Assembly: GCA_963694535.1 (NCBI GenBank)
Contig: CAVODE010000002.1
Location: forward strand, 1 to 52,844
DNA length: 52,844 bases
Source of the DNA: Dehalococcoidia bacterium
GTDB taxonomy: Bacteria > Chloroflexota > Dehalococcoidia > UBA2979
Reading direction: 5' to 3'
Below the pieces are notes generated by a model. It made no database searches and was not told the DNA's origin. It was given only the letters and a program-made list of their open reading frames with translations. Positions 146 through 27,267 of this stretch are shown piece by piece; the first letter of the stretch is position 1, and every line of letters begins with the position of its first letter. A program made the translations under genes and the position numbers.

Positions 146-177
146 TATCATCTATCAACGAAATAGAGGTGGAAGAC

Positions 178-1149
178 ATGGACACACATTCAGAGGGCTT
201 TCTAAATATAGACACTGATTTAAGTAAAATAAAGGCTTCGGTATTAATAGTAGGTGTAGGACCTCAAACCGATGGCGTGGCTGCCCACAACACTATCCTC
301 CATTTAGTAGAAGAATATGATGCTACTCAAATTGGTACCATAAATTCTGAAGATTTATTTGATTTAAGCGATGAGCGCCCGCAAGTTTCACTTGATGATT
401 TAGGCAACAGAACAATAGAGTGGCCTGATGCAAGCTTTTGGCACCTTGCAAAGGAAAATTTATCGTCTCCCGTTGTTGCACCTCTTGTCGATACCCGTGA
501 TGGTGATATTTTATTTTTTACTTCACCCGAGCCACATTTTAAATGGATGAAAATAGCTGAAGCAATTACACACGTCGCAACAAAAACTCAAATCCAAAAA
601 ATAATTTTGCTTTCGTCATTTGATGGACCGGTCCCATACGACAAACAAGCCCCCATTCTTGTTACGTCAGGTGCATCAGCCAATGACGCAGAGAATCCGG
701 CTCATGATTTTGCGAGGAATATCGCTGATCTCACTGCGGCCAGCTTCACTACCCCTAAATATCAAGGGGGTGCCACTTTCACCATGGCGTTAGGCACCAT
801 GCTGAGGAATGAAGGATTTATGGTAGCCACGATAAACGCAATTGCCCCTTTCTACGTGCAAAATAGTGGCTCTCCACATGCCATTGATGCGCTCCTGAGC
901 GCTTTCGATAGTCTATATGGCACAATCACCCCTCGTTATGATCTAGAGGAAGAAATGCTTAATTTAAGAACTCGGCTCGAGAACGCACGTAGTGAAGATT
1001 CAACTTTTGACACGTTTATAAATGCGCTGGACTCACAGTTTCTCACATGGCAGCAAAATTTTGTGCAAACTGTAAAAGAGCCTGAGCTTAAAACAGAGGA
1101 TATTCTTGCGGATGTTGAGGCCTTGTTTAATGAAGATCAAGTAAGTTAG
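178..1149 (+). CDS. PAC2-family (proteasome assembly chaperone 2-like) protein
   Basis: The ORF track gives 169..1149. AGAGGTGG at 165-172 favours ATG 178 over GTG 169. Segments VLIVGVGPQTDGVAA, IEWPDASFW, FFTSPEPHFKW and LLSSFDGPVPY match the PAC2 (PF09754) pattern as I remember it from actinobacterial proteins. No search was run. Confidence 0.55.
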   Translation: MDTHSEGFLNIDTDLSKIKASVLIVGVGPQTDGVAAHNTILHLVEEYDATQIGTINSEDLFDLSDERPQVSLDDLGNRTIEWPDASFWHLAKENLSSPVVAPLVDTRDGDILFFTSPEPHFKWMKIAEAITHVATKTQIQKIILLSSFDGPVPYDKQAPILVTSGASANDAENPAHDFARNIADLTAASFTTPKYQGGATFTMALGTMLRNEGFMVATINAIAPFYVQNSGSPHAIDALLSAFDSLYGTITPRYDLEEEMLNLRTRLENARSEDSTFDTFINALDSQFLTWQQNFVQTVKEPELKTEDILADVEALFNEDQVS

Positions 1150-1162
1150 AAGATAAATCTAG

Positions 1163-2062
1163 ATGGATAACGGCAAATCCTCAAATGATTTAACGGCACA
1201 TAGGATAGCTGTTTCGTATATAGATAAGTCCAGGGATTTTTACTCGGCACAAGGCTATGGAAAACCTTATCGTTGGGCATCTAATTTAGAAACTCCCTTT
1301 ACTCCGCTGAAAAAACCACTAAATGAGTGTCGCGTAGGACTCGTCACCACAGCCACTATTCCAAAACCCGGCGTGAGTCTTGAGTATGATCCTGGACTAC
1401 TCAAAACAACGGCTCTTTTCAGCGCACCTAGCGACCCTACCCCAGACGCTCTTTACACAATGGATAGATCTTGGGATAAAGAAGCTACGCATACTCTGGA
1501 TCTCGGGTCATTTTTTCCATTAGATCATTTGAAATATTTTGCGGAACAAGAGATAATTGGATCAGTTTCACCAAGGTTTTATGGAGTGCCTACCGACTAC
1601 TCACAGAGTCGAACATCAAAAAAGTATGCACCCGAGATATATAGACAAATGCAAGAAGACAAGGTTGATATCGCCTTACTGGTGCCACTATGACCCGTTT
1701 GTCATCAGACCGTGGGCCTGATCGCACGTCATCTTGAATCAACTGGCATTCCAACGGTCATAGCTGGTTCCGCCAGGGATATCATCGAACAGTGTGGTGT
1801 GCCACGATTTCTCTTCACTGATTTTCCACTTGGGAATCCTATGGGCGTCCCATTTGACAGCGGAATGCAAAAGACTATCACTCGCATGGCACTAGATCTC
1901 GCAGTTAATACCTCGTTCTCGCGAACTACCGTTCAAACACCGTTTGAGTGGCACGATAATGAGTGGAGAAAAAAGTTCATGTATGTCGGAGATGAAAATC
2001 GAGAATTACTCGCACGAGCTGGACGGTTACGCAAGTTACAACAGGAAAAAAATCGACAGTAA
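1163..2062 (+). CDS. PrdB/GrdB-family (glycine/sarcosine/betaine/D-proline reductase component B-like) putative selenoprotein, read through in-frame UGA at 1691..1693
   Basis: Track ORFs 1163..1693 and 1712..2062 are in the same frame. They are separated only by TGA plus six sense codons. The joined product of 299 aa reads VDIALLVPL-U-PVCHQTVGLIARHLESTGIPTVIAGS. That matches the U-x-x-C-H ... E-x-x-GIPT context of clostridial PrdB as I recall it. The upstream part (FFPLDHL..., APEIYRQMQEDKVD) also aligns with that family. Confidence 0.75.
1704..1722 (+). promoter_or_regulatory. Possible bacterial SECIS hairpin downstream of the in-frame UGA
   Basis: ATCAG (1704-1708) pairs with CTGAT (1718-1722), and an inner CC/GG pair leaves a GUG apical loop. 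The hairpin begins after a 10-nt spacer from the UGA, about the spacing expected for bacterial SECIS elements. The stem is short, so support is weak. Confidence 0.35.
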
Positions 2063-2106: not shown

Positions 2107-2673
2107 ATGCCGTCATGTGATGATACGCTCGCGTCATCAGAAAACATGGCAGGCCTCCACATGACGATACAAGATAATAAAAATTTTGATTCCAGAGCGT
2201 TTAGAAATGCAATGGGTTCCTTTGCCACGGGGGTTACTGTTGTAACAATGGCAAAATCTGATGGAAGTCTAAAGGCCATGACGGCAAATGCATTTTCTTC
2301 AGTGTCACTTGAACCACCTATGCTGCTGGTCTGCATTGACAAGGGAGCTTCCATGCACGAATGGCTCGACCATGTTAGTGCCTTCGGTGTAAATATCTTG
2401 TCAGGTGAACAGCAACATGTGTCAAATGTTTTCGCAAGTAGCGGTACACATCCGGAACCATTGAGCGGAATTCCGCATACGATTGGCCCTCTGGGAGTTC
2501 CCGTAATCAATGACGTTATGCTCTGGGCAAGTTGTAAAATAATACATAAATATCCGGCTGGAGATCACACAATACTCGTTGGACAAGTCGAAGGGCTAGA
2601 AAACAACCAAGCTATTAATAGCCCACTATTGTTTCACAGTGGTAAATATCACCAACTAGGTGAGGAAATGTAG
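2107..2673 (+). CDS. Flavin reductase family protein (FMN-binding split-barrel, NAD(P)H:flavin oxidoreductase)
   Basis: FRNAMGSFATGVTVVT, FSSVSLEPPMLLVCI, HTILVGQVE and PLLFHSGKY are typical flavin reductase domain motifs. The true start may be a later ATG (2146 or 2161). Confidence 0.85.
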   Translation: MPSCDDTLASSENMAGLHMTIQDNKNFDSRAFRNAMGSFATGVTVVTMAKSDGSLKAMTANAFSSVSLEPPMLLVCIDKGASMHEWLDHVSAFGVNILSGEQQHVSNVFASSGTHPEPLSGIPHTIGPLGVPVINDVMLWASCKIIHKYPAGDHTILVGQVEGLENNQAINSPLLFHSGKYHQLGEEM

Positions 2674-2679
2674 ATAACA

Positions 2680-3363
2680 GTGCCAGTAACCAACGCCAAC
2701 GGAATAAATCAACACTACGAACTGACTGGTAATGGAAATCAAACGGTAGTCTGGATTCACGGCATTGGCGGTTCACTTAATTACTGGACCGAGGATTTAC
2801 CTAAATTCTCTAACTTCCAGCATTTGACATACGATGTCAGAGGAATGGGAGAAACTGAAGGAACTAGCGACTCCGTTTCACTTCAAATTTGGGCAAAAGA
2901 TCTGAGTGAACTATTGAAAGCTCTGGATATTAATAATGCAATTATTGCAGGTTCATCTATGGGTGGAGCTATCGCACAGCGATTTGCAATAGATAATCCC
3001 GATCAAACCGCAGCACTTTTGCTTCTGTCCACATCGAGCCGAGTTGGTGCAGCGGCAACAGATCATTGGCGAGCACAGGCCGATGAGACAGAAAAAAAAG
3101 GAGATAAATTTCTAGCGGAAGCTCAGCGAGCGGTCGCGTTCTACAATATGGATGAGGAGCTTAAAGATATCGCAGTTGCAACTCTAATTTTAGTTGGTGA
3201 TGCTGACCCTACGACTCCACCTGGTGGCTCGGTCATTATGTCCAGATGCATTGTCGACTCAGAACTTGAAATTTATTCTGGTTTGGGTCATGCGCCGCTG
3301 CACGAGTCAGATGAACCTGTCAAAAGAGTGCAGGCATGGCTCGCTCGAGTACAAACTGCATAG
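2680..3363 (+). CDS. Alpha/beta hydrolase (3-oxoadipate enol-lactonase-like)
   Basis: HGIGGS oxyanion region, GSSMGG nucleophile elbow, and a C-terminal GHAP with His. GTG start. Confidence 0.8.
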   Translation: MPVTNANGINQHYELTGNGNQTVVWIHGIGGSLNYWTEDLPKFSNFQHLTYDVRGMGETEGTSDSVSLQIWAKDLSELLKALDINNAIIAGSSMGGAIAQRFAIDNPDQTAALLLLSTSSRVGAAATDHWRAQADETEKKGDKFLAEAQRAVAFYNMDEELKDIAVATLILVGDADPTTPPGGSVIMSRCIVDSELEIYSGLGHAPLHESDEPVKRVQAWLARVQTA

Positions 3364-3575: not shown

Positions 3576-4124
3576 ATGATCGGTAGTTCCCGCACAAACC
3601 TTGTCGCAAGCATGCTCATATTCACACTTGTATCTCATTCCTTTATCATCGGGTCATCGCTGCTATTGGCTACTCTCTTCACACGGATCGAACATGTAGT
3701 CCTATACGTGAGCGTGCTATTTTCTCTCACCCTTGGCATCCAAATTTGGGAAGAATCAAAAAAGAAATTAACCCGCCTGAGCGTGGTGTATTACGATGGG
3801 GACTGCCGATTTTGTGTTTGCACACTAAAAATACTATCAACGATCTTCAGATTCAAACACGTACGGTTCGTAAGAGGCGATTCTGATCCAAAGATTAACT
3901 CCGAAATGAATAATGAAAATTCCTGGCTCGTCCAAGATAGCAATGGTAGTTTTAATCTTCGCTCTGCCGGATTAATAGAATTACTAAAAACATCTCACTA
4001 TCTCTTTGGTACGACACGCTTGCTTGACTTTGCTACACGCGTGCTAGAGAAGCCATTAGATAGGCTGTATAACCTGATTGCCGAAAATAGAGCATTTCTG
4101 TCAAAAATGATATCCTGCAAATAG
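3576..4124 (+). CDS. DCC-family thiol-disulfide oxidoreductase (DUF393) with N-terminal hydrophobic extension
   Basis: VVYYDGDCRFCVCTLK carries the D-x-x-C-x-x-C signature of the DCC family. The first ~60 aa are two hydrophobic segments. A shorter product starting at the GTG codons just before YYDG is possible. Confidence 0.6.
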   Translation: MIGSSRTNLVASMLIFTLVSHSFIIGSSLLLATLFTRIEHVVLYVSVLFSLTLGIQIWEESKKKLTRLSVVYYDGDCRFCVCTLKILSTIFRFKHVRFVRGDSDPKINSEMNNENSWLVQDSNGSFNLRSAGLIELLKTSHYLFGTTRLLDFATRVLEKPLDRLYNLIAENRAFLSKMISCK

Positions 4125-4166: not shown

Positions 4167-4592
4167 ATGAGTAATTCTTATACTAAATGCGAAACGAAAT
4201 TTGGTTTCTTACTCCTCCAAAGATCATGCGGATCACTCTCGAGCGGGCAATGCGTCTATTGCGGAAGGTATTTTTGCCTTCGCTGTGGAATACAGGAAGA
4301 AAATCATTATGACGTCTGCAAGAGGCACAGCTGTAAACTAAAATATACAGACCTAACAACTCATAAAAAATGGATTGTAAAGCAACAAAAACTAAATGAC
4401 CAAGGGCTTTGTGCCGGTGACGAATGTGAATTTAAATCCCTACATATTTGTGAGCAATGCCATCTAGCCTTTTGCAAAAAATGTCTGAGATTCACAAAAG
4501 CACGCGTAGTGACAGTGCGCACCACCCTACAGGTGGAAAAATTGATTTGTCTTCATTGCAAGGCGCGTCAGAAAATATGGAATGCTAATTAG
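4167..4592 (+). CDS. Cysteine-rich putative zinc-binding protein (two CxxC-x4-CxxC modules)
   Basis: 141 aa with 16 Cys. The two modules are CVYCGRYFCLRC ... HYDVCKRHSC and CEQCHLAFCKKC ... CLHC. No family is confidently recognised. Confidence 0.45.
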   Translation: MSNSYTKCETKFGFLLLQRSCGSLSSGQCVYCGRYFCLRCGIQEENHYDVCKRHSCKLKYTDLTTHKKWIVKQQKLNDQGLCAGDECEFKSLHICEQCHLAFCKKCLRFTKARVVTVRTTLQVEKLICLHCKARQKIWNAN

Positions 4593-5400: not shown

Positions 5401-5817
5401 TCACTCGTCAGGGTAATCGTAGCCAAGTAGTCCAGAGGTTAATGCATTTCTCTTCCACGACCAATACTGTCGAATCTCATATATCAGTCCAGCAGCTATC
5501 GTATAGTGTTCAGATCCATGAAAGACTACTTCTTTACCAGCAATCGTTCCCTTCATAGTCCATTCAATAGCCGCCGATTCACCAGATTCGATTACTGAGT
5601 CCACATGCCATGTCGCGCCATTCCACTGCTCTCTAATATCTACCCAAAATTGACCGATAAGTTCTTTTGACAATATGGGTTGATGATTTGTGTCATATAC
5701 AGCGGCCTCAGTCGAAAAAAAGTCTGCTATCTCGGCTGCCGATCCATAGCTACAAGATAGAAAGTATTTTCTAATCAATACTTCGCTCGGACCTTGGTGC
5801 CTGTTGGCTTCACTCAT
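5401..5817 (-). CDS. NTF2-like / SnoaL-like domain protein
   Basis: 138 aa with size and pattern typical of SnoaL_2-type cone folds. Its start overlaps the upstream stop (ATGA), which suggests translational coupling with the ligase gene. Confidence 0.55.
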   Translation of the reverse strand: MSEANRHQGPSEVLIRKYFLSCSYGSAAEIADFFSTEAAVYDTNHQPILSKELIGQFWVDIREQWNGATWHVDSVIESGESAAIEWTMKGTIAGKEVVFHGSEHYTIAAGLIYEIRQYWSWKRNALTSGLLGYDYPDE

Positions 5818-7040
5818 CAGTTCGCTTCTAAATCAACGCCCAGCACCATCGCGAGTTCGATTAGAGACGATCTACCTGCCTCACTCGAAACTTTGCCTTT
5901 TATAATTGCATTGGCTAATCCTATAAGAATGTTTGCCGCGGCTGGGGTATCAAGGTCATTGTCCATAGCTGCTTGAAAACGACTTCGGTATGGTTGAGAG
6001 GAAAGTGGGTCTCCTGCTGATCCGCTCATCAAAGTTGCATTCTTAAAAATCGTTACAAGCTCTTCGCACGTCGCTAGGGCTGCTGAATCATAATCTCTAT
6101 CCTCCCGATAATGTACTCGGGCCAACGAAAGTCTTACTGCATTTCCAGAATATTCTCGCTGCACTAGGTCACTCACTTTAACAAGATTCCCTAGCGATTT
6201 TGACATTTTTACGCCATCGAGCTGCATCGTCCCATTATGCATCCAGTATGAAACATATGGTGTCTTGCCAGTAAATGCTTCACTCTGAGCAATTTCAGAT
6301 GCGTGATGCGGATAACGTAAATCCTTTCCACCACCATGTATATCCAAACGATCGCCTAAATGGGTTTGAGCCATCACAGAACATTCAATATGCCACCCAG
6401 GTCGACCCACACCCCACGGAGATTCAAAACTCGCCTCAGCGTGCGAAGAGGGTTGCCAGATTAAAAAGTCTAGTGGTGATCGTTTCAGTTCTTCCGGCTC
6501 GGCAGGCATGGAATCAGATTCAAAGGTAAGTAGTTCAGTATTTGTCAGACCAATAAGGTCACCTAGGGACTGTTGCTTATCAGAATCAAAAAATACATAC
6601 CCATCCCTGAGGTATGCCGCTTCTTTTTCTACTAAATTAGCTACGACAGTAATGATTTCAGGAATAGTCTCCGACACGCGTGGGTACAAATTCGGCGCCA
6701 AAATATTTAAGGCCGACATCTCATCAAGATAAATCTGATGATTTGTGTCCGTCAGCTCTTTAATCGTCAAGCCTCGCTCTTCTGAGACGCGCACCATATC
6801 ATCGTCAATATCCGTTATATTTTGAATGTGAGTGACTTCGTGACCATTAAATTCTAGCCACCTCCGCAAGAGGTCAAATGCAACTGATGTGAGAGCATGT
6901 CCCAAATGACCAACATCGTACGGAGTCACTCCACACACATAAAGACCAACCCCTGTGTCACTGAGAGGAACAAATGGTTCAATTTTTTGCGATAACGAAT
7001 TGAATAGTCGTAAATTATTATGCGGTCTTGCTTCTAACAT
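5817..7040 (-). CDS. Cysteinyl-tRNA-synthetase paralog with MshC-like architecture (cysteine ligase lacking the C-terminal anticodon-binding domain)
   Basis: It has class-I motifs HLGH and KMSKS. The zinc/cysteine-site residues are present (YVCG, WHIECS, HGGGxDLxYPHHxSE). It is 407 aa and ends right after MDNDLDTP...LGVDL. HYREDR and GVTPYDVGHLGHA...ITDIDD resemble actinobacterial MshC as I recall it. Confidence 0.7.
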   Translation of the reverse strand: MLEARPHNNLRLFNSLSQKIEPFVPLSDTGVGLYVCGVTPYDVGHLGHALTSVAFDLLRRWLEFNGHEVTHIQNITDIDDDMVRVSEERGLTIKELTDTNHQIYLDEMSALNILAPNLYPRVSETIPEIITVVANLVEKEAAYLRDGYVFFDSDKQQSLGDLIGLTNTELLTFESDSMPAEPEELKRSPLDFLIWQPSSHAEASFESPWGVGRPGWHIECSVMAQTHLGDRLDIHGGGKDLRYPHHASEIAQSEAFTGKTPYVSYWMHNGTMQLDGVKMSKSLGNLVKVSDLVQREYSGNAVRLSLARVHYREDRDYDSAALATCEELVTIFKNATLMSGSAGDPLSSQPYRSRFQAAMDNDLDTPAAANILIGLANAIIKGKVSSEAGRSSLIELAMVLGVDLEAN

Positions 7041-10157: not shown

Positions 10158-11222
10158 TTATACCCCAGCCAGCGAATCACGAACAATCGGCAGAATCTCA
10201 CTCGGGACTCGTTCTAGATAGGCATCAGGGCCATAGTCTGGTGTTGGCGGATTCGGTATGGGATGCAAAACCACATACTCAAATTCAATATCAAGGTTAT
10301 AGAGCTCAGTGAGTAAATCCAGTAACTGAGCCGCAATACTCTGTGCATCACCTAAAAGTGAGAACGCTCGAGCGTGAGCTTCTGAAAGAAAATCAACTGC
10401 TCTGCCACTCTCGAGTAAATCAGTGTTGTGGTGAAAGTCCGGCCATATTCCCTGCTTAGATTTAAGTTCATCAGGTGAATCAGCTGTCCAATCCAGGCCA
10501 ACGTTGTTAAAAAGTGTAGGCGAATATTCGTAGTAACCGGCAGCCATCGATTTTCCCATTAGTAGTGACTCTTCTAAATCATCATGAAAAACGGTGTGCA
10601 AAACTGTGCCCAAACGTATTTCTTTTGGATCACGTCCGGCTTCTTCTGCGCCGGCTCTAATCTCCTTAACTGCCAAAGCAATATTTCTAATATCGGTACC
10701 CACGCGAATAAATACACCATCGGCCACACTACCAGCCATTCGTAGTGTTCGTGGTCCACCGGCAGCAATCCAAATTGGCACGGGCTGAGCGAATGGCAAG
10801 AAGGCAGGCCGCCTCGCATTTACATCAACTTTTTCGCCTGCCAATAAACTTTGGATCAATCTTGTACTCACCTCTAAACTGCTGACACGGGCAGGCCGTA
10901 GTCCGGCTAGTCTCACGGCAGTATCCCCTACACCTAGCCCTAATATAGTTCTCCCTTGAGCCAACTCTGCGATAGTTGCAATACTCGAGGCCGTAACGGA
11001 CGGATGACGTGTAATTGGGTTGGTCAACAGTGGCCCAATCGTGATCTCGCTGGTAGCTTGCGCAGCTGCAGCTAACAGCACATAGGTGTCCCTTCTTCGC
11101 AGTTGTGAGTCGGGTAAAAACGCCGCATCCCAGCCACTATATTCTGCTCTAGTTACATCGGCTGCATACGCCGCGACAGAACTAGTATCGTGCCTGTTCA
11201 AACCGAATTTTGGAAGTCGCAT
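10158..11222 (-). CDS. LLM-class (luciferase-like) flavin/F420-dependent oxidoreductase
   Basis: 354 aa TIM-barrel pattern (ILGLGVGD, IWIAAGGPRTLRMAG). It is a tandem paralog of the next gene. Confidence 0.8.
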   Translation of the reverse strand: MRLPKFGLNRHDTSSVAAYAADVTRAEYSGWDAAFLPDSQLRRRDTYVLLAAAAQATSEITIGPLLTNPITRHPSVTASSIATIAELAQGRTILGLGVGDTAVRLAGLRPARVSSLEVSTRLIQSLLAGEKVDVNARRPAFLPFAQPVPIWIAAGGPRTLRMAGSVADGVFIRVGTDIRNIALAVKEIRAGAEEAGRDPKEIRLGTVLHTVFHDDLEESLLMGKSMAAGYYEYSPTLFNNVGLDWTADSPDELKSKQGIWPDFHHNTDLLESGRAVDFLSEAHARAFSLLGDAQSIAAQLLDLLTELYNLDIEFEYVVLHPIPNPPTPDYGPDAYLERVPSEILPIVRDSLAGV

Positions 11223-11228
11223 TTAGAT

Positions 11229-12290
11229 CTAAGTTTCCAAATTAATTTCGCGAAGTATCTTCATGGTTTCAGCGAGAGTATTGAGACGTTCACCCACACT
11301 AGCCCCATACGGGCCAACTCGGAAAGTATTGACGCCGACAGCTTTATAAGCTTTAAGCTTTTCTGCAACATCAGCCGAGGAGCCCAAAATCGACGAATTA
11401 AGCACCATTTCAGTGGGCACTTCACGTCGAGCCTCGTCACGTCGTCCCTCTACCCACAGTCCCTGTATTTTACTCACCTCATCAGCCCAACCTTGCCGCC
11501 TGTATGCATCAGCGTAGAAATTTTGGGTTTTCGAACCCATTGCTCCTATCTGAAAGGCCAGTGAGGGCTTAAGTTCTTCAGCCGCCTGTTCAATATCTTC
11601 AGTAAATCTGACAGTTCCACCAACAGCTATGTCGATACTTTCAAGTGTTCTGCCGACACTTTCCGCACCTTTACGCATAGGGCCCAAAAAGGTTTCAGCT
11701 GCTTCAGGTAGAAAAGATGTACCCAGCCAACCATCAGCGAATGCACCCGTCATAAATAAATTTTTTGGACCGAGTGACGCGACATATATCGGTAGATTCG
11801 GGCATACAGGAGCCCCTGATCTCAGAGCTTTTCCTAAACCGGTGCCACCTCTCTCAACTGAGAGAGGTAATTCCCAAAATTCCCCGTCATATGCAAGGGT
11901 TTCACCATTAAAGATTCGTCGACAAATATCGATTATTTCCCTTGTGTGTTTGACCGGTTTTCTGAAAGGGATTCCGTGCCATCCCTCAATGACTTGTGGC
12001 CCACTGGTCCCAAGTCCCAAAATAAATCGACCTCCCGACATCGAATCCAAAGTCATCGCTGTCATCGCAACCAGTGATGGTGTTCGAGTCCCAACCTGGA
12101 AAATTCCTGATCCGAATTTCAATGTCGATGTTTTAGCTATTAGATATGCTAGAGGAGTAGCAGCGTCATGTGCCCAGGCTTCGGCGCTCCAAAGAGAATC
12201 AACTCCTAACTTCTCGGCTCCTAGGGCAAATTCTGTTGCTTCTTCCCAATCTTCAATCGCGTAACGATTTAAGCCGACAGACGCCTTCAT
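11229..12290 (-). CDS. LLM-class (luciferase-like) flavin/F420-dependent oxidoreductase
   Basis: 353 aa with LGVDSLWSAEAW, ILGLGTSGPQVIEGWHG and IYVASLGPKN. It lies 6 nt upstream of its paralog. Confidence 0.8.
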   Translation of the reverse strand: MKASVGLNRYAIEDWEEATEFALGAEKLGVDSLWSAEAWAHDAATPLAYLIAKTSTLKFGSGIFQVGTRTPSLVAMTAMTLDSMSGGRFILGLGTSGPQVIEGWHGIPFRKPVKHTREIIDICRRIFNGETLAYDGEFWELPLSVERGGTGLGKALRSGAPVCPNLPIYVASLGPKNLFMTGAFADGWLGTSFLPEAAETFLGPMRKGAESVGRTLESIDIAVGGTVRFTEDIEQAAEELKPSLAFQIGAMGSKTQNFYADAYRRQGWADEVSKIQGLWVEGRRDEARREVPTEMVLNSSILGSSADVAEKLKAYKAVGVNTFRVGPYGASVGERLNTLAETMKILREINLET

Positions 12291-16858: not shown

Positions 16859-17080
16859 TTAGAGTCGAAGCTTACCGTGTGAAGGTTGGCGGCGGCGCTG
16901 TTTACCAGCGGCAAGCTGCTCTTCCTTTTCGATATCAGCTGGATCACAACGCTCCTGCTCGTGCACGTAGCCACAAGCTACACACGATCCAAAAACACCG
17001 TACCAGTCATCTTCTATAATCATCATGCCCTCACAACGGGGACATCTTCTAGGTGGGGTACTCACAATTGGCATGCCCAT
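16859..17080 (-). CDS. Small zinc-ribbon protein (73 aa) with basic C-terminal tail
   Basis: CPRC-x19-CVAC zinc ribbon. A strong SD (GGAGG) lies 3 nt before the ATG. The gene has its own promoter and a long structured leader. Confidence 0.5.
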   Translation of the reverse strand: MGMPIVSTPPRRCPRCEGMMIIEDDWYGVFGSCVACGYVHEQERCDPADIEKEEQLAAGKQRRRQPSHGKLRL

Positions 17081-17262
17081 CTACCTCCGGATCCAAAACT
17101 ACCCAGCAAGCTGGGAAAAACGCTGATCCGGGCGCCGCCGAGGTTAGCTGTCGGGTTCGGGCTGATCAGAAAAAGCCCGTCTTGAATAGGCTTACGCCTT
17201 TCCAAGATTCACCCCATAGTTGGTTCCCCCGGGTTCCTTAAAAGGAAATTAGGCGGCCACTA
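17081..17262 (-). promoter_or_regulatory. Structured 5' leader / candidate riboswitch upstream of the zinc-ribbon ORF (class unassigned; loose cobalamin-like motifs)
   Basis: Minus-strand RNA. A closing helix pairs GCCGCC (17252-17257) with GGCGGC (17134-17139) and encloses about 112 nt with internal hairpins. CCGGAUC (17125-17131) can pair with GAUCCGG (17087-17093), which overlaps the SD. The hairpin CCCAGC/GCUGGG (17102-17115) is followed by UAGUUUUGG. Motifs GGGGGAACC, GGGGUGAAUC and AGCCCGAACCCGAC are reminiscent of cobalamin riboswitch core/B12 box, but the CCCGC-ACUGU and GCCACUG elements are missing. Confidence 0.35.
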
Positions 17263-17279
17263 GAGTTGTGACAGTTCTC

Positions 17280-20898: not shown

Positions 20899-22698
20899 AT
20901 GAAATTAAGTCAATCTAATTCAGCTTTAGCAATATCCAAAGTGTTCTATCTGGTTCTACTGCTATCAATCACCTTGGGCGTAAATTGCAGTTCAACCTCT
21001 ATGCCAACTCCATCGCGCATTGAAGCTAACTCACCACCCATGGTTACACAAATTCCTCAGATCACTGTTTTGACACGGCCCTTCAGTCTGAACTTATTAA
21101 AGTCAACTACACCTGAGAATCTAGAGATCGTACCCACCAACTCGGATCTAGCACAGACAATAGTGCAAATTCTTGGAGTATCATTCCGAACTGATTCATC
21201 TCCGGGCTTCGCTAATACTGCGGGCATAGAATATGACATTGTTACAGCAACAACTGGAGTAATAATAGATTCTGAACAGAAATTGATACTAACGGATTTT
21301 GCCTCTGTTGATTGGCAAGATCCGTTAGGGCAAAAGCGTATTGACGCGCTATACATTGTGACTAACCGTGACCCACGTAAGCCAAAAATCGAATACCAAG
21401 CTGAACTAATAGCAGCGAACTTTGCAAGAGATCTCGCCATAGTGAAACTGAGCAAGAAAGTTGATGGGTCGGAAATTAAAAGTTACGCACCGTTTAGCGA
21501 GGCAAAGATCGCAGCAACCGTGCCACGTGATTCTGGGCAAGAACTCCGCGTATTAGGTCACGTGGGTACTTCACTCGATCCTGTCAAAATTGAAAGACTA
21601 CAATTGGTTGGACTAATGAACTCTAATCTTGAGTCCATCAACCTATTACTCGATAATGATACAAATACGACAAATAAATTTCCAGAGTATTTGAAATTAA
21701 TGAACGGCCCAAATTTACTTAACAAAGGGGCAGCATTCACGACAAAAGGAACGTTTGCGGGATTTCTCTCTGCGATGCCGACAGAGATGAACGGGCCAAA
21801 GGTATTGATACGAAGTGTCGATTCCATAACAGATGCGTTTGCCGGCAATAACGTCGTGTCCGCTCTTAGTGAATCCTACAGACGGGAATTTAACTACAAT
21901 TTGAGCAACCAGAGTAAAAGCAGCGAACAAATTTACGTATCCACACCAACATTCGCGACGCTCGCATCAACTAATAAATTTGGGCGCGAGTTAGCTCAAT
22001 ATGACGACCAATTCAATAACGTATCTGAAATTTTCTACGAATACGTCGTTGCAAAAACTGAGCGACAAATTGAGTTATCTGAGATTTGGTTATTTGACGA
22101 TATTGTTATAGATGCTCTCTCCCAATCTCGTCTGTACTCCTCAGAAAGTGCCTCCTGGCACGGCCAATCGCTTAAAAGCGTGACTGCAAATACCGCCACA
22201 GGCCTCGCGAATAATAGTGATCGAACAAATAGTTTACTCAAAGGCGATTGGGAATTACAAATATTGATCGATGGAAGTCTAGTCGCAAAAAGTAAGTTCA
22301 CCATAGGTGGAGAGATAACTAAAGTGCGTCAGATCAGCCCGCTAGTATCAGATAACCAAGTCTCAAACACTGGCCCTGAAATTACTGATTTCGTCTGGGG
22401 GACCGCCGCAAAACTTGATGGTCAAATAATCGGTGACGTTGAAGCTGGAATTGAAAAAGTACTGCTTGGCTTTAAGTATCAGCACTTTGACGAGTCGATG
22501 ACTTTAGGTTGGAAAGTTTACTACGGTCCTGACTTAATTTATTCATCCAAGGAGATTCCATGGGTATTCGAAAAAGAAAATCTATTTTGGATTGGTTTTT
22601 ATCCAACTGAACCATTGTGGCCAGGCTGGTGGGAATTCGAGTTTTATTTAAATGGGGAAATAATCAAACAAATTGGACGAACCGTGGAGGCGAACTAA
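20899..22698 (+). CDS. Secreted/anchored protein with trypsin-like (S1C/HtrA-like) fold that appears to lack catalytic His and Ser, plus a repeated C-terminal beta-rich region
   Basis: N-terminal hydrophobic signal/anchor. TGVIIDSEQKLILTDFASV aligns with GSGFIID..G.ILTNAHVV, where His becomes Ala. ARDLAIVKL retains the Asp motif. NKGAAFTTKGTFAGFLS aligns with GNSGGPL...G.vvGI.S, where Ser becomes Gly. All alignments are by eye. Confidence 0.45.
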   Translation: MKLSQSNSALAISKVFYLVLLLSITLGVNCSSTSMPTPSRIEANSPPMVTQIPQITVLTRPFSLNLLKSTTPENLEIVPTNSDLAQTIVQILGVSFRTDSSPGFANTAGIEYDIVTATTGVIIDSEQKLILTDFASVDWQDPLGQKRIDALYIVTNRDPRKPKIEYQAELIAANFARDLAIVKLSKKVDGSEIKSYAPFSEAKIAATVPRDSGQELRVLGHVGTSLDPVKIERLQLVGLMNSNLESINLLLDNDTNTTNKFPEYLKLMNGPNLLNKGAAFTTKGTFAGFLSAMPTEMNGPKVLIRSVDSITDAFAGNNVVSALSESYRREFNYNLSNQSKSSEQIYVSTPTFATLASTNKFGRELAQYDDQFNNVSEIFYEYVVAKTERQIELSEIWLFDDIVIDALSQSRLYSSESASWHGQSLKSVTANTATGLANNSDRTNSLLKGDWELQILIDGSLVAKSKFTIGGEITKVRQISPLVSDNQVSNTGPEITDFVWGTAAKLDGQIIGDVEAGIEKVLLGFKYQHFDESMTLGWKVYYGPDLIYSSKEIPWVFEKENLFWIGFYPTEPLWPGWWEFEFYLNGEIIKQIGRTVEAN

Positions 22699-22755: not shown

Positions 22756-23436
22756 ATGTCAGAAACTGATAGAACTCTTCACACCATCGCACTGATCGGG
22801 GGGACTGGTCCTGAAGGTAAGGGTCTTGCTACTCGATTTGCGATTGCCGGGCATAAAGTAATTATCGGAAGTCGAGACCCCGCGCGAGGTATCGAAGCTG
22901 CGACTGACTTAAACCAACAGCTTAATGCTCTGGCGGATGTAGATATCACTGGCGATACAAACGAAAACGCAGTTAGCATTGCTAATATAGCAGTCGTTAC
23001 GGTACCTTACGGAGGGCATCAGGCTACTCTAGAAAGCCTAAAGTTACTACTTGTGGACAAAATTGTGATTGACGCTGTAGTACCAGTCTATTTTGAGAAA
23101 GGCCCTCGACCAATTGACGTGCCGGCGGGATCAGCGACTGAAGAAGCTGCGGCGATTTTACCAGATTCAAAGGTAGCTGGAGCATTCCATAACTTATCAG
23201 CTGAAATATTGCTAGATCCGGACGCAGACCTCGATGCTGACGTACTCGTTACTGGTTCAGGGGTCGCCAAGGAAGTTGCTATCCAGCTCGCTTCAGAAAT
23301 CAAGGGTGCTAGAGCTGTTGATTCTGGGCCCTTGAGATATTCGAGATTTGTCGAGGGTATTACTATTTTGCTTATCGGAATTAATTCAAGATATAAAACA
23401 CATACGGGCGTCACCGTCAGCGGTCTGGAGCAATAA
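22756..23436 (+). CDS. npdG: NADPH-dependent F420 reductase
   Basis: IALIGGTGPEGKGLATRFAIAGHKVIIGSRD Rossmann start and a 226-aa length are typical of Fno/NpdG. It is adjacent to cofE. Confidence 0.8.
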   Translation: MSETDRTLHTIALIGGTGPEGKGLATRFAIAGHKVIIGSRDPARGIEAATDLNQQLNALADVDITGDTNENAVSIANIAVVTVPYGGHQATLESLKLLLVDKIVIDAVVPVYFEKGPRPIDVPAGSATEEAAAILPDSKVAGAFHNLSAEILLDPDADLDADVLVTGSGVAKEVAIQLASEIKGARAVDSGPLRYSRFVEGITILLIGINSRYKTHTGVTVSGLEQ

Positions 23437-23438
23437 AA

Positions 23439-24248
23439 GTGAGTGAAAACAATCAAACTCAAGCAAGAACAACTACAAGTGCTGGGAACTTAAATATAGA
23501 TGAAGTAAGAATTCTAGCAATACGTAATTTGCCGATGGTCGAAGAGGGCGACGATATCGTAGATCAAATTATTATCGGAGCGGATAAGCAGGGCACCCCA
23601 TTAAAAAACAAGGATATCGTCGTTATCACACAAAGAATATTCTCCAAGGCCCAAGGGCTAGTCGTTCCTCTTGATGACTATCCACCTAGCCCATTCGCGG
23701 TTGAATATGCAGAGCGAACTGAAAAAGACCCTCGGTTGGTTGAGGCTGTACTCCAGGAATCCACGCGAATCATCCGGCAGGTGGGAGGGGTACTCATTAC
23801 AGAAACAAAACATGGTTTCAAGTGTGCAAATGCAGGCGTAGACGGCTCGAATGTTGGCGGTGATGATTTAATCTCTCTGCTACCAAAAGATCCCGACCAA
23901 GATTGTCAGACGGTTTGTGACATCATCAAAGCGAGACTTGGGCTCGACGTGGGAGTGGTTATGACTGATACATTTGGGCGCCCCTGGCGACATGGACAGA
24001 CCAACGTTGCCATCGGTGTGGCCGGAATGCAACCCATGAGGGACTACGTGGGTGCCAACGATCTCGATGGGAAAGAACTGAGAGTGACGACCATATGCGT
24101 AGCCGATGAAATCGCTGGAGCAGCTGAACTCGTGATGGGCAAGCTAGACGCAGTACCCGCCGCGATAGTGAGAGGATATCCATTCGAAATAAGTCAAGGG
24201 TCTGCCTCTGAAATAGTACGTGAAACTCCATTAGACTTGTTTCCCTAG
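23439..24248 (+). CDS. cofE: Coenzyme F420-0:L-glutamate ligase
   Basis: VVITQRIFSKAQG, TKHGFKCANAGVDGSNV, DTFGRPWRHGQTNVAIG and AAELVMGK are CofE/FbiB N-domain motifs. GTG start. Confidence 0.85.
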   Translation: MSENNQTQARTTTSAGNLNIDEVRILAIRNLPMVEEGDDIVDQIIIGADKQGTPLKNKDIVVITQRIFSKAQGLVVPLDDYPPSPFAVEYAERTEKDPRLVEAVLQESTRIIRQVGGVLITETKHGFKCANAGVDGSNVGGDDLISLLPKDPDQDCQTVCDIIKARLGLDVGVVMTDTFGRPWRHGQTNVAIGVAGMQPMRDYVGANDLDGKELRVTTICVADEIAGAAELVMGKLDAVPAAIVRGYPFEISQGSASEIVRETPLDLFP

Positions 24249-26508: not shown

Positions 26509-27267
26509 TTGTTAAACTTTATGCCAAGTAATCTAATGAGCCTCTTCGATGGGTCAAAGCTAAACGGAGCTATGGATACGCAAAACCGTAAAGCGATGAT
26601 CATCGCGGCCCATCCCGATGACGGTGAATTCGGGGCAGCCGGAACTGCGACCCTACTGGCAGCCGCTGGATGGACCTTTGAGTATCTAGTGATCACAGAC
26701 GGCAGCAAGGGTAGTTCGGACGGAACCGTAGACGCAAATGAGTTGCGAGAGACGCGGTTAGTCGAACAAAATGACGCCGCCCAACATCTTGGAATTTCGA
26801 AGGTGACAAGTTTAAATTATGTCGATGGTGAGTTACTAGCAGGCAGGACTTTGCTTGGTGAAATAGTTCGTCAAATCAGGATATTCAAACCGGAAATTAT
26901 TTTCACTCATGACCCCGAATCAATGTTCTCTGGCACCGGGTGGATTCATCACTCTGATCATCGAATAACTGGGCAAATGGTTATCGATGCGGTCTATCCA
27001 GCAGCCAGGGATATATTGAATTTTCCAGAACATTTTGATGAAGGTCTCACAACGCATAATGTACAAACCATATATTTATGGGACACAGAAAAACCAAACA
27101 TTTATATCGATATCTCTGATGTGCTTGAAAAGAAAATATCAGCACTACTGTCACATAAATCACAATTTCCCAGTCCAAAGCTGTTTGCTCATCAATCACG
27201 ACAGATGTGGCAGGACTTCGACGGTAAATATCGTGAAGAATTTCGTCGCCTCGATATTTGGGCGTAA
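26509..27267 (+). CDS. PIG-L family (LmbE-like) deacetylase
   Basis: MIIAAHPDDGEFGAAGT and HSDH motifs. The track start is TTG 26509. ATG 26572 (MDTQNRKAMIIAAHPDD, preceded by GGAG) looks more likely. Confidence 0.8.
   Translation: MLNFMPSNLMSLFDGSKLNGAMDTQNRKAMIIAAHPDDGEFGAAGTATLLAAAGWTFEYLVITDGSKGSSDGTVDANELRETRLVEQNDAAQHLGISKVTSLNYVDGELLAGRTLLGEIVRQIRIFKPEIIFTHDPESMFSGTGWIHHSDHRITGQMVIDAVYPAARDILNFPEHFDEGLTTHNVQTIYLWDTEKPNIYIDISDVLEKKISALLSHKSQFPSPKLFAHQSRQMWQDFDGKYREEFRRLDIWA

Follow-up and report, generated by a model that had tools for sequence, protein, structure and literature searches.

A PrdB-like gene with an in-frame UGA, very probably encoding a selenoprotein, in a Dehalococcoidia bacterium

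Introduction

In the Sargasso Sea, the selenoprotein family designated "Proline reductase (PrdB)", characterized by the motif UXXC, was found to be the third most abundant, being represented by 42 selenocysteine (Sec) genes (Zhang, Fomenko, Gladyshev 2005, PMC1088965), and in the subsequent analysis of the Global Ocean Sampling (GOS) data 235 Sec and 110 Cys members of the family were recorded in 38 samples (Zhang and Gladyshev 2008, PMC2398784); in addition, "Proline reductase" selenoproteins were listed in 2006 for Anaeromyxobacter and Geobacter (PMC1794560). The subject of the present analysis is a gene that belongs to this family and occupies positions 1163-2062 of the forward strand of a 52,844-nucleotide stretch of DNA (contig CAVODE010000002.1 of assembly GCA_963694535.1, here called the window in its full length) from a Dehalococcoidia bacterium.

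The relationship with the marine family is close. The entry AACY01093821 of the 2005 supplement (PMC1088965), which reads LLVPLuPVCHQT around the Sec residue and continues through NGIPT and GSARD to FPLGNP, shares 70% identity with the window protein over 178 amino acids, the uPVCHQT motif included. Both carry the U-P-V-C-H-Q-T motif, and in both an in-frame TGA is matched by Cys in homologues; nothing sets them apart as to kind, and the window gene is a further member of the family. The selenoprotein status of this family has been established since 2005, and there is no novelty in a PrdB homologue that decodes Sec. The differences concern what is said of the family: in 2005 and 2008 it was treated as proline reductase and no host was given, whereas here a host within the Dehalococcoidia can be indicated and the absence of a PrdA partner is documented. 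Neither the host lineage nor the missing partner is addressed in the accessible text of the two papers (PMC1088965, PMC2398784), and the word "PrdA" occurs 0 times in the main text of the GOS paper.

One reading frame across a UGA

A preliminary description of this DNA, made from the sequence alone, held that two open reading frames (ORFs), 1163..1693 and 1712..2062, are parts of one Sec-decoding gene. The elements on which this proposal was based are all verified in the sequence: the two ORFs are in one frame, a TGA at 1691-1693 lies between the two halves, the 18-nucleotide linker (1694-1711) consists of the six sense codons CCC GTT TGT CAT CAG ACC, and the GTG with which the second ORF starts (1712) lacks a preceding purine-rich Shine-Dalgarno (SD) sequence. 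Read-through of 1163-2062 yields 299 residues with a lone internal stop, the product reading ...VDIALLVPL, then the stop, then PVCHQTVGLIARHLESTGIPTVIAGS..., and the segment of the read-through protein that spans the Sec residue being LLVPL-U-PVCHQTVGLIAR. A six-frame scan indicated that this is the only site in the 52.8-kb window at which a TGA joins an in-frame pair of substantial coding-strand ORFs, and no credible further candidate for a selenoprotein with an in-frame TGA was found upon scanning the window.

When the stop is replaced, the protein is matched by the NCBIfam model TIGR04483 (PrdB) from residue 46 to residue 266, that is, across the UGA, with E = 5.7e-27. Furthermore, comparison with the closest genome (L007, a Dehalococcoidia metagenome-assembled genome, JAPYRK01, whose protein is 90% identical to that of the window) gave ratios of non-synonymous to synonymous substitution rates (dN/dS) of 0.057 for the part before the TGA and 0.135 for the part after it, values which indicate translation of both halves in this frame and purifying selection on each. 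It is thus very probable that 1163-2062 constitutes one gene, encoding a 299-residue selenoprotein that belongs to a separate PrdB-like branch within the GrdB/PrdB superfamily; the partition into a 176- and a 116-amino-acid ORF made by the gene caller is, we infer, an annotation artefact.

Conservation of the UGA and the Cys homologues

A homologue search of 5.8 billion proteins yielded 1810 relatives, and a genomic scan, in which each GTDB species was represented by one genome, revealed at least 585 stretches encoding relatives, the best 80 of which were analysed and provided 79 distinct related genes, the window's own gene being counted among them. The column of the UGA is occupied by TGA in 76/79 of these genes and by TGC in 3/79; the hosts belong to the Chloroflexota (Dehalococcoidia, Anaerolineae), Syntrophaceae/Smithella, Acidimicrobiia, Myxococcota and Spirochaetaceae. 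As to the Cys-containing orthologues, these are single polypeptides of ~290 amino acids: the full-length Cys homologues, originating from Bradyrhizobium, Acidimicrobiia and many metagenomes, are proteins of ~291 amino acids that align end to end and carry the invariant sequence L-C-P-V-C-H-Q-T, the window TGA being aligned with the first Cys of their CPVCHQ.

The protein databases bear the mark of this codon. The closest entries (88-92% identity) are 176-amino-acid fragments ending at the same position, and many cluster representatives of the family are fragments that either end at profile position 160-161 or begin at 169; the fragment clusters in the protein library are genes split at the Sec codon by gene calling. 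The alternative that a 176-amino-acid protein and a 116-amino-acid protein starting at GTG 1712 are the products of two separate genes, a split that mechanical ORF calls do yield, has next to no probability in view of the missing SD sequence before the GTG, of the linker codons, which encode the invariant PVCHQT, of the fact that every Cys-type homologue is a single polypeptide, and of the ends of the library fragments at 160-161 and their starts at 169, as expected of calling artefacts at a Sec codon.

It could also be supposed that the TGA is a nonsense mutation in a once Cys-containing gene, now a pseudogene, or else an assembly or sequencing error, a supposition with which the splitting of the gene by gene callers and the thermodynamically unexceptional character of the window hairpin (see below), when this is taken alone, would agree. 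The same TGA, however, is present in 6/6 fetched independent metagenome assemblies of this organism, 90 blocks of the collection are listed in the index as containing the identical 176-amino-acid product, TGA is found in 76 of the 79 divergent genes, and purifying selection acts on the downstream frame, which is unbroken, so that this explanation can hardly be given any credence and is effectively refuted already.

The SECIS-like hairpin

A hairpin, located within the coding sequence at 1704-1722 and separated from the UGA by a 10-nucleotide spacer, would act as a bacterial selenocysteine insertion sequence (SECIS). In the family the consensus following the TGA is CCG GUC UGC C, then ACCAGAC, CGUGA and GUCUGGU, then C, which corresponds to a 7-bp stem with onset 10 nucleotides after the UGA and to a 5-nucleotide loop with G-U, the G-containing apical loop lying ~20 nucleotides from the UGA. 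The window counterpart (AUCAGAC / CGUGG / GCCUGAU) contains one compensated U-A pair and could have a weak stem extension formed by 1700-1702 with 1724-1726.

The evidence for this structure comes from comparison among relatives. Pairing is found in 92% of the cells in 72 distinct sequences, compared to 16-31% after a displacement of the 3' partners by 1-3 columns, and one stem pair occurs in these sequences as 49 C-G, 12 U-A and 5 U-G, the 12 representing double changes from C-G to U-A. Furthermore, the codons for Q-T-V-S-L (1706-1720) have the five lowest codon entropies among the 131 columns that are degenerate and conserved in amino acid, the normalised mean synonymous entropy being 0.21 for the hairpin codons vs 0.84 +/- 0.11 elsewhere (Mann-Whitney p = 8e-5); this collapse of synonymous variation indicates that at the hairpin site a constraint at the RNA level overlaps the coding constraint. 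The folding energy of 27-mers averages -10.6 kcal/mol at this site in the Sec-type genes vs -4.6 +/- 3.1 kcal/mol for segments taken elsewhere in these genes, and the 27-nucleotide fold of the window hairpin itself has -7.3 kcal/mol, a value within the top 19% of control segments. As far as the sequences indicate, the significance of the hairpin rests on its conservation among relatives and not on thermodynamics.

The register of the SECIS varies among lineages, with the G-U loop being kept: in seven loci (L021, L043, L061, L073, L075, L083 and L084) a shifted hairpin of the form CCGUGA-GUC-UCACGG or CCGUCA-GUU-UGACGG, located ~20-40 nucleotides after the TGA, replaces ACCAGAC/GUCUGGU.

Taken together, the location of the UGA at the Sec/Cys column of the family, the conserved hairpin and the purifying selection on both sides of the UGA bear out the proposal that the two ORFs are one Sec-decoding gene; likewise, the hairpin that had been placed at 1704-1722 does exist with its 10-nucleotide spacer, is conserved with compensatory changes and has the lowest synonymous entropy.

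Decoding of the UGA

A number of observations weigh against the reading of the gene as a stand-alone or otherwise partnered Sec-decoding member of this superfamily. The 52.8-kb window, ~8 kb past its 3' end and 86 related loci yielded neither tRNA-Sec nor selA, selB or selD when searched with aragorn for tRNA-Sec, with sequence motifs for SelA, SelB and SelD and by a walk past the 3' end of the window. The window hairpin has an A.C mismatch at 1709:1717 and only moderate stability, and its 66-nucleotide fold is no better than that of shuffled sequences (z = +0.86); RNAalifold returned no consensus structure from the 72-sequence alignment, no SECIS family of Rfam was matched either at the gathering threshold or at permissive E-values, and a minority of the Sec-type genes have the shifted-register hairpin, so that the structure is not uniform. 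The negative results concerning partner subunits, presented below, cover the window and the 86 related loci, and a partner may be encoded elsewhere in the genome. Finally, the catalytic mechanism considered below would be carried over from GrdB/PrdB and, being transferred, counts on the same side. Sec insertion in this organism, which is most likely a marine, SAR202-like Dehalococcoidia bacterium, is thus suggested by the signals of the gene itself and by the behaviour of its family; no paper discussing the use of selenocysteine in SAR202 was found in the open-access literature.

The lack of Sec machinery in the accessible sequence would agree with a decoding of the UGA without selenocysteine, either by a reassigned code (Trp or Gly) or by near-cognate read-through with Trp or Cys stimulated by the hairpin, as would the W that appears at the Sec column in the database entries P0001, P0122 and P0136. 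These entries, however, most likely stem from source pipelines that translate TGA as Trp (code 4), and the fetched gene of P0136 (L087) does have TGA at this position. Moreover, TGA is the stop of 12 other genes of the window, whose Pfam domains are complete and extend almost to the C-terminus, ending a few residues from it, which indicates that the genetic code is the standard one; the homologues without TGA all have Cys, a Cys/Sec and not a Trp pattern; and many other host lineages, Syntrophaceae and Myxococcota among them, are documented Sec users (PMC1794560). Decoding as something other than Sec has therefore a very slight probability, and selenocysteine is by far the preferred reading of codon 177.

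A separate observation concerns a Spiroplasma alleghenense protein annotated as PrdB (P0176), in which the catalytic Sec/Cys column is occupied by Arg (GRGTCH), a residue that would be odd for an active reductase. Spiroplasma decodes UGA as Trp.

Relation to PrdB and GrdB

True PrdB proteins, of Clostridium sporogenes/botulinum, Caldicellulosiruptor and other origins, were retrieved from the databases and are 25-27% identical to the window protein. The catalytic columns read L-U-P-V-C-H-Q in the window and G-[C/W]-G-T-C-H-R in PrdB, the UGA falling at the Sec/Cys column of PrdB. The two are therefore alike in the column of the Sec or Cys, in the x-x-C-H that follows it and in an E-x-x-G-I-P-T located 15 residues downstream of that column, so that the position of the UGA and the U-x-x-C-H ... 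GIPT spacing, both of which had been attributed to this protein at the outset, are the same in the PrdB-like family and in true PrdB. In both cases, furthermore, a SECIS hairpin lies inside the coding sequence, with its onset ~13 nucleotides after the UGA in true prdB and 10 nucleotides here. On the other hand, the SECIS sequences are unrelated, the window protein has 299 amino acids vs the 241 of PrdB, with ~25 extra N-terminal and ~45 extra C-terminal residues, and the GFMGGGG and AALPP of PrdB are replaced by YGVPT(D/E)YSQ and GSARD.

With GrdB, GrdF and GrdH the window protein shares a weak homology in its C-terminal half (E = 1.6e-9 to 3e-7) and the UxxC selenoprotein motif (PMC13188914), but it is ~140 residues shorter and falls below the Pfam and TIGR01918 cut-offs, and there is no GrdA, GrdE or GrdC gene near it. 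Indeed, the scores fail the equivalog cut-off of TIGR04483 for PrdB (94.7 bits vs 300), the subfamily cut-off of TIGR01918 (30.0 bits vs 65.45) and the gathering cut-off of Pfam GRDB, PF07355 (20.3 bits vs 22). Judging from these sequence comparisons, the gene belongs to the GrdB/PrdB superfamily, with the catalytic motif kept, and lies outside the PrdB and GrdB families as curated.

Genomic context

The features of the window to which reference is made are collected in Table 1. The flanking genes had been described as those of a PAC2-like protein, a flavin reductase and an alpha/beta hydrolase, and Pfam confirms all three. The PAC2 gene is syntenic only in the window and in L003, L007-L010 and L013, which are the closest Dehalococcoidia relatives, and the order PAC2 / PrdB-like / flavin reductase / hydrolase / DCC1-like is likewise kept only in the nearest Dehalococcoidia relatives. 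Clustering of the neighbouring ORFs in the 79 loci brought to light no partner conserved throughout the family; the largest cluster of neighbours was rejected, being an artefact due to an antisense ORF within the selenoprotein gene itself. The Cys-type homologue of Bradyrhizobium is accompanied by an MFS transporter and a 436-amino-acid TPR-like protein and a second one, from another genome, by peptide-binding proteins and an FAD-linked oxidase; the neighbours of neither are shared with the other loci.

Table 1. Coordinates of the features of the window (amino acids, aa; selenocysteine, Sec)
Feature	Position	Strand	Remarks
PrdB-like selenoprotein coding sequence (very probable)	1163..2062	+	299 codons + TAA stop; Sec = codon 177
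In-frame UGA, read as selenocysteine	1691..1693	+	first residue of U-P-V-C-H-Q motif
Cys180 + His181 codons	1700..1705	+	invariant in 79/79 related genes and in true PrdB
SECIS-like hairpin in coding sequence	1704..1722	+	stem 1704-1710/1716-1722, loop 1711-1715 (CGUGG)
PAC2-family gene	169..1149	+	Pfam PF09754, E = 5.9e-24; upstream of selenoprotein gene
Flavin reductase	2107-2673	+	Pfam
Alpha/beta hydrolase	2680-3363	+	Pfam
DCC1-like thiol-disulfide oxidoreductase	3576-4124	+	Pfam; after tRNA-His
Cys-rich 141-aa ORF	4167-4592	+	no Pfam match; syntenic in nearest relatives
407-aa class-I tRNA-synthetase-like protein	5817-7040	-	tRNA-synt_1e, CysRS type; resembles MshC-type cysteine ligases
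Coenzyme F420 genes	10158-12290, 22756-24248		two luciferase-like oxidoreductases, F420-dependent oxidoreductase, F420:glutamyl ligase
73-aa ORF	16859-17080	-	two CxxC pairs, zinc-ribbon-like; directly downstream of riboswitch
c-di-AMP (ydaO-type) riboswitch	17118-17265	-	Rfam 76.5 bits
599-aa ORF	20899-22698	+	weak trypsin-like match only (E ~1e-4)
PIG-L family deacetylase	26509-27267

The canonical prd operon, exemplified by L087 and L088, is compact, with the order prdC-prdA-orf92-prdB and prdD/E nearby. Using tblastn, no match with E <= 0.01 to PrdA, PrdC, PrdD, PrdE or orf92 was obtained in the window or in the 86 related loci, each taken with 7-10 kb of flank, while the PrdB query matched 87 times in the same search. 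Among the ORFs of the window there is neither a GRDA nor a Gly_reductase Pfam domain, nor does the window contain a split ORF of the CxxU type resembling GrdA. The Gly_reductase Pfam family PF09338 is common to PrdA and PrdD/E and covers GrdE too. The earlier statement that no PrdA or Grd partner is nearby therefore stands, the tblastn negatives pertaining to the window and 86 loci and the Pfam negatives to the window.

These data bear on the possibility that the gene encodes the B subunit of a genuine D-proline (or glycine/betaine) reductase, with a PrdA/GrdE-type partner and the electron-transfer proteins located elsewhere in the genome. PrdB is the best profile match, the U-x-x-C-H ... GIPT core is common to both proteins, and both the literature and the annotation of the Joint Genome Institute (JGI) name the family "proline reductase PrdB". 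Nevertheless, an identity of 25-27% with a score far under the equivalog cut-off, the replacement of GFMGGGG and the N- and C-terminal extensions, and the occurrence of PrdA/C/D/E in 0/86 loci (7-10 kb, many phyla), despite the compactness of the canonical operon, make this possibility distinctly improbable. Among the hosts, moreover, are aerobic bacteria of sea and soil in which Stickland fermentation is not known to occur, and this weighs in the same direction.

The lack of an adjacent PrdA/GrdE pyruvoyl partner in the genomes examined and the strong divergence from PrdB make it improbable that the protein reduces D-proline or glycine; as judged from sequence, it is probably a stand-alone or differently partnered reductase. 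That the gene is part of a classical Stickland reductase, a role to which the preliminary description had already given little credit, is very unlikely, and the failure to reach the cut-offs of the PrdB and GrdB models is consistent with this view.

Possible mechanism, fold and fusion proteins

In the mechanism that can be envisaged, the hairpin would recruit SelB with Sec-tRNA(Sec) so that translation would run on through the UGA; the selenolate of Sec177 would be the catalytic nucleophile attacking the substrate; Cys180, presumably the resolving residue of the UxxC redox motif, would resolve the adduct into a selenenyl-sulfide; and an external reductant, either thiol- or flavin-dependent, would re-reduce the selenenyl-sulfide, thereby regenerating the enzyme. 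The selenolate/Cys180 chemistry is proposed from the conserved U-P-V-C-H motif, which PrdB and GrdB share, and from current knowledge of these two proteins (reviewed in PMC13188914).

The AlphaFold2 model of a Cys homologue that is 62% identical (P0003) has a predicted local distance difference test score (pLDDT) of 90.6 and a predicted template-modelling score (pTM) of 0.90. A Foldseek comparison of this model with the PDB gave nothing below E = 0.01, the best template-modelling (TM) score being ~0.3, and a sequence-profile search of the PDB gave no match, so that in the model the PrdB-like fold seems to be without a solved structural relative and provided no hint as to function.

Fusions were sought by comparing the profile with 1.84 billion cluster representatives. 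A Cys-type sister branch (PNCPVCHQ) was found at the C-terminus of AMP-binding adenylate-forming enzymes in three clusters, P0244 (805 amino acids), P0242 and P0245, and other PrdB-like fusions involve a Ser/Thr protein kinase domain and an HTH domain (P0257, P0347); all of these may offer clues to what the family does. The AMP-binding fusions hint at a covalent acyl/carboxylate chemistry on Sec/Cys; AMP-binding genes occur within a few kb of Sec-type genes at 2 loci only among those searched, and given this rarity the hint is not directly transferable to the Sec clade. It is conceivable, and we hold this tentatively as somewhat less than an even chance, that the PrdB-like family is a separate, stand-alone class of selenoenzymes that operates without a pyruvoyl partner and is neither a proline nor a glycine reductase.

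Other features of the window

The remaining entries of Table 1 lie apart from the selenoprotein gene. The riboswitch and the 73-amino-acid ORF are flanked by a leuA-like gene and by cobT on the opposite strand. The coenzyme F420 genes of the window are joined by a fused FO synthase just outside it on the upstream side (L001 780-3245), and the region contains many genes of acyl-CoA metabolism; richness in F420 and acyl-CoA genes fits a Dehalococcoidia of the SAR202 type. A normal CysRS is longer than 407 amino acids, and the CysRS/MshC-like protein could, together with the PIG-L deacetylase, belong to a thiol pathway resembling that of mycothiol or bacillithiol.

Concluding remarks

The two ORFs should be merged in the annotation as one selenoprotein gene, the same split being widespread in public protein sets. 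The gene implies the use of selenocysteine in a SAR202-like marine lineage of the Dehalococcoidia. Furthermore, a "PrdB" that is abundant in the ocean, is not accompanied by a PrdA partner and fails the PrdB and GrdB cut-offs is one whose true reaction is worth testing experimentally. Should the family prove to be a stand-alone class, an abundant selenoprotein of the ocean would have been misnamed for ~20 years, and a selenium-dependent reaction would have gone unrecognised in organic-matter-degrading bacteria of the SAR202 type.

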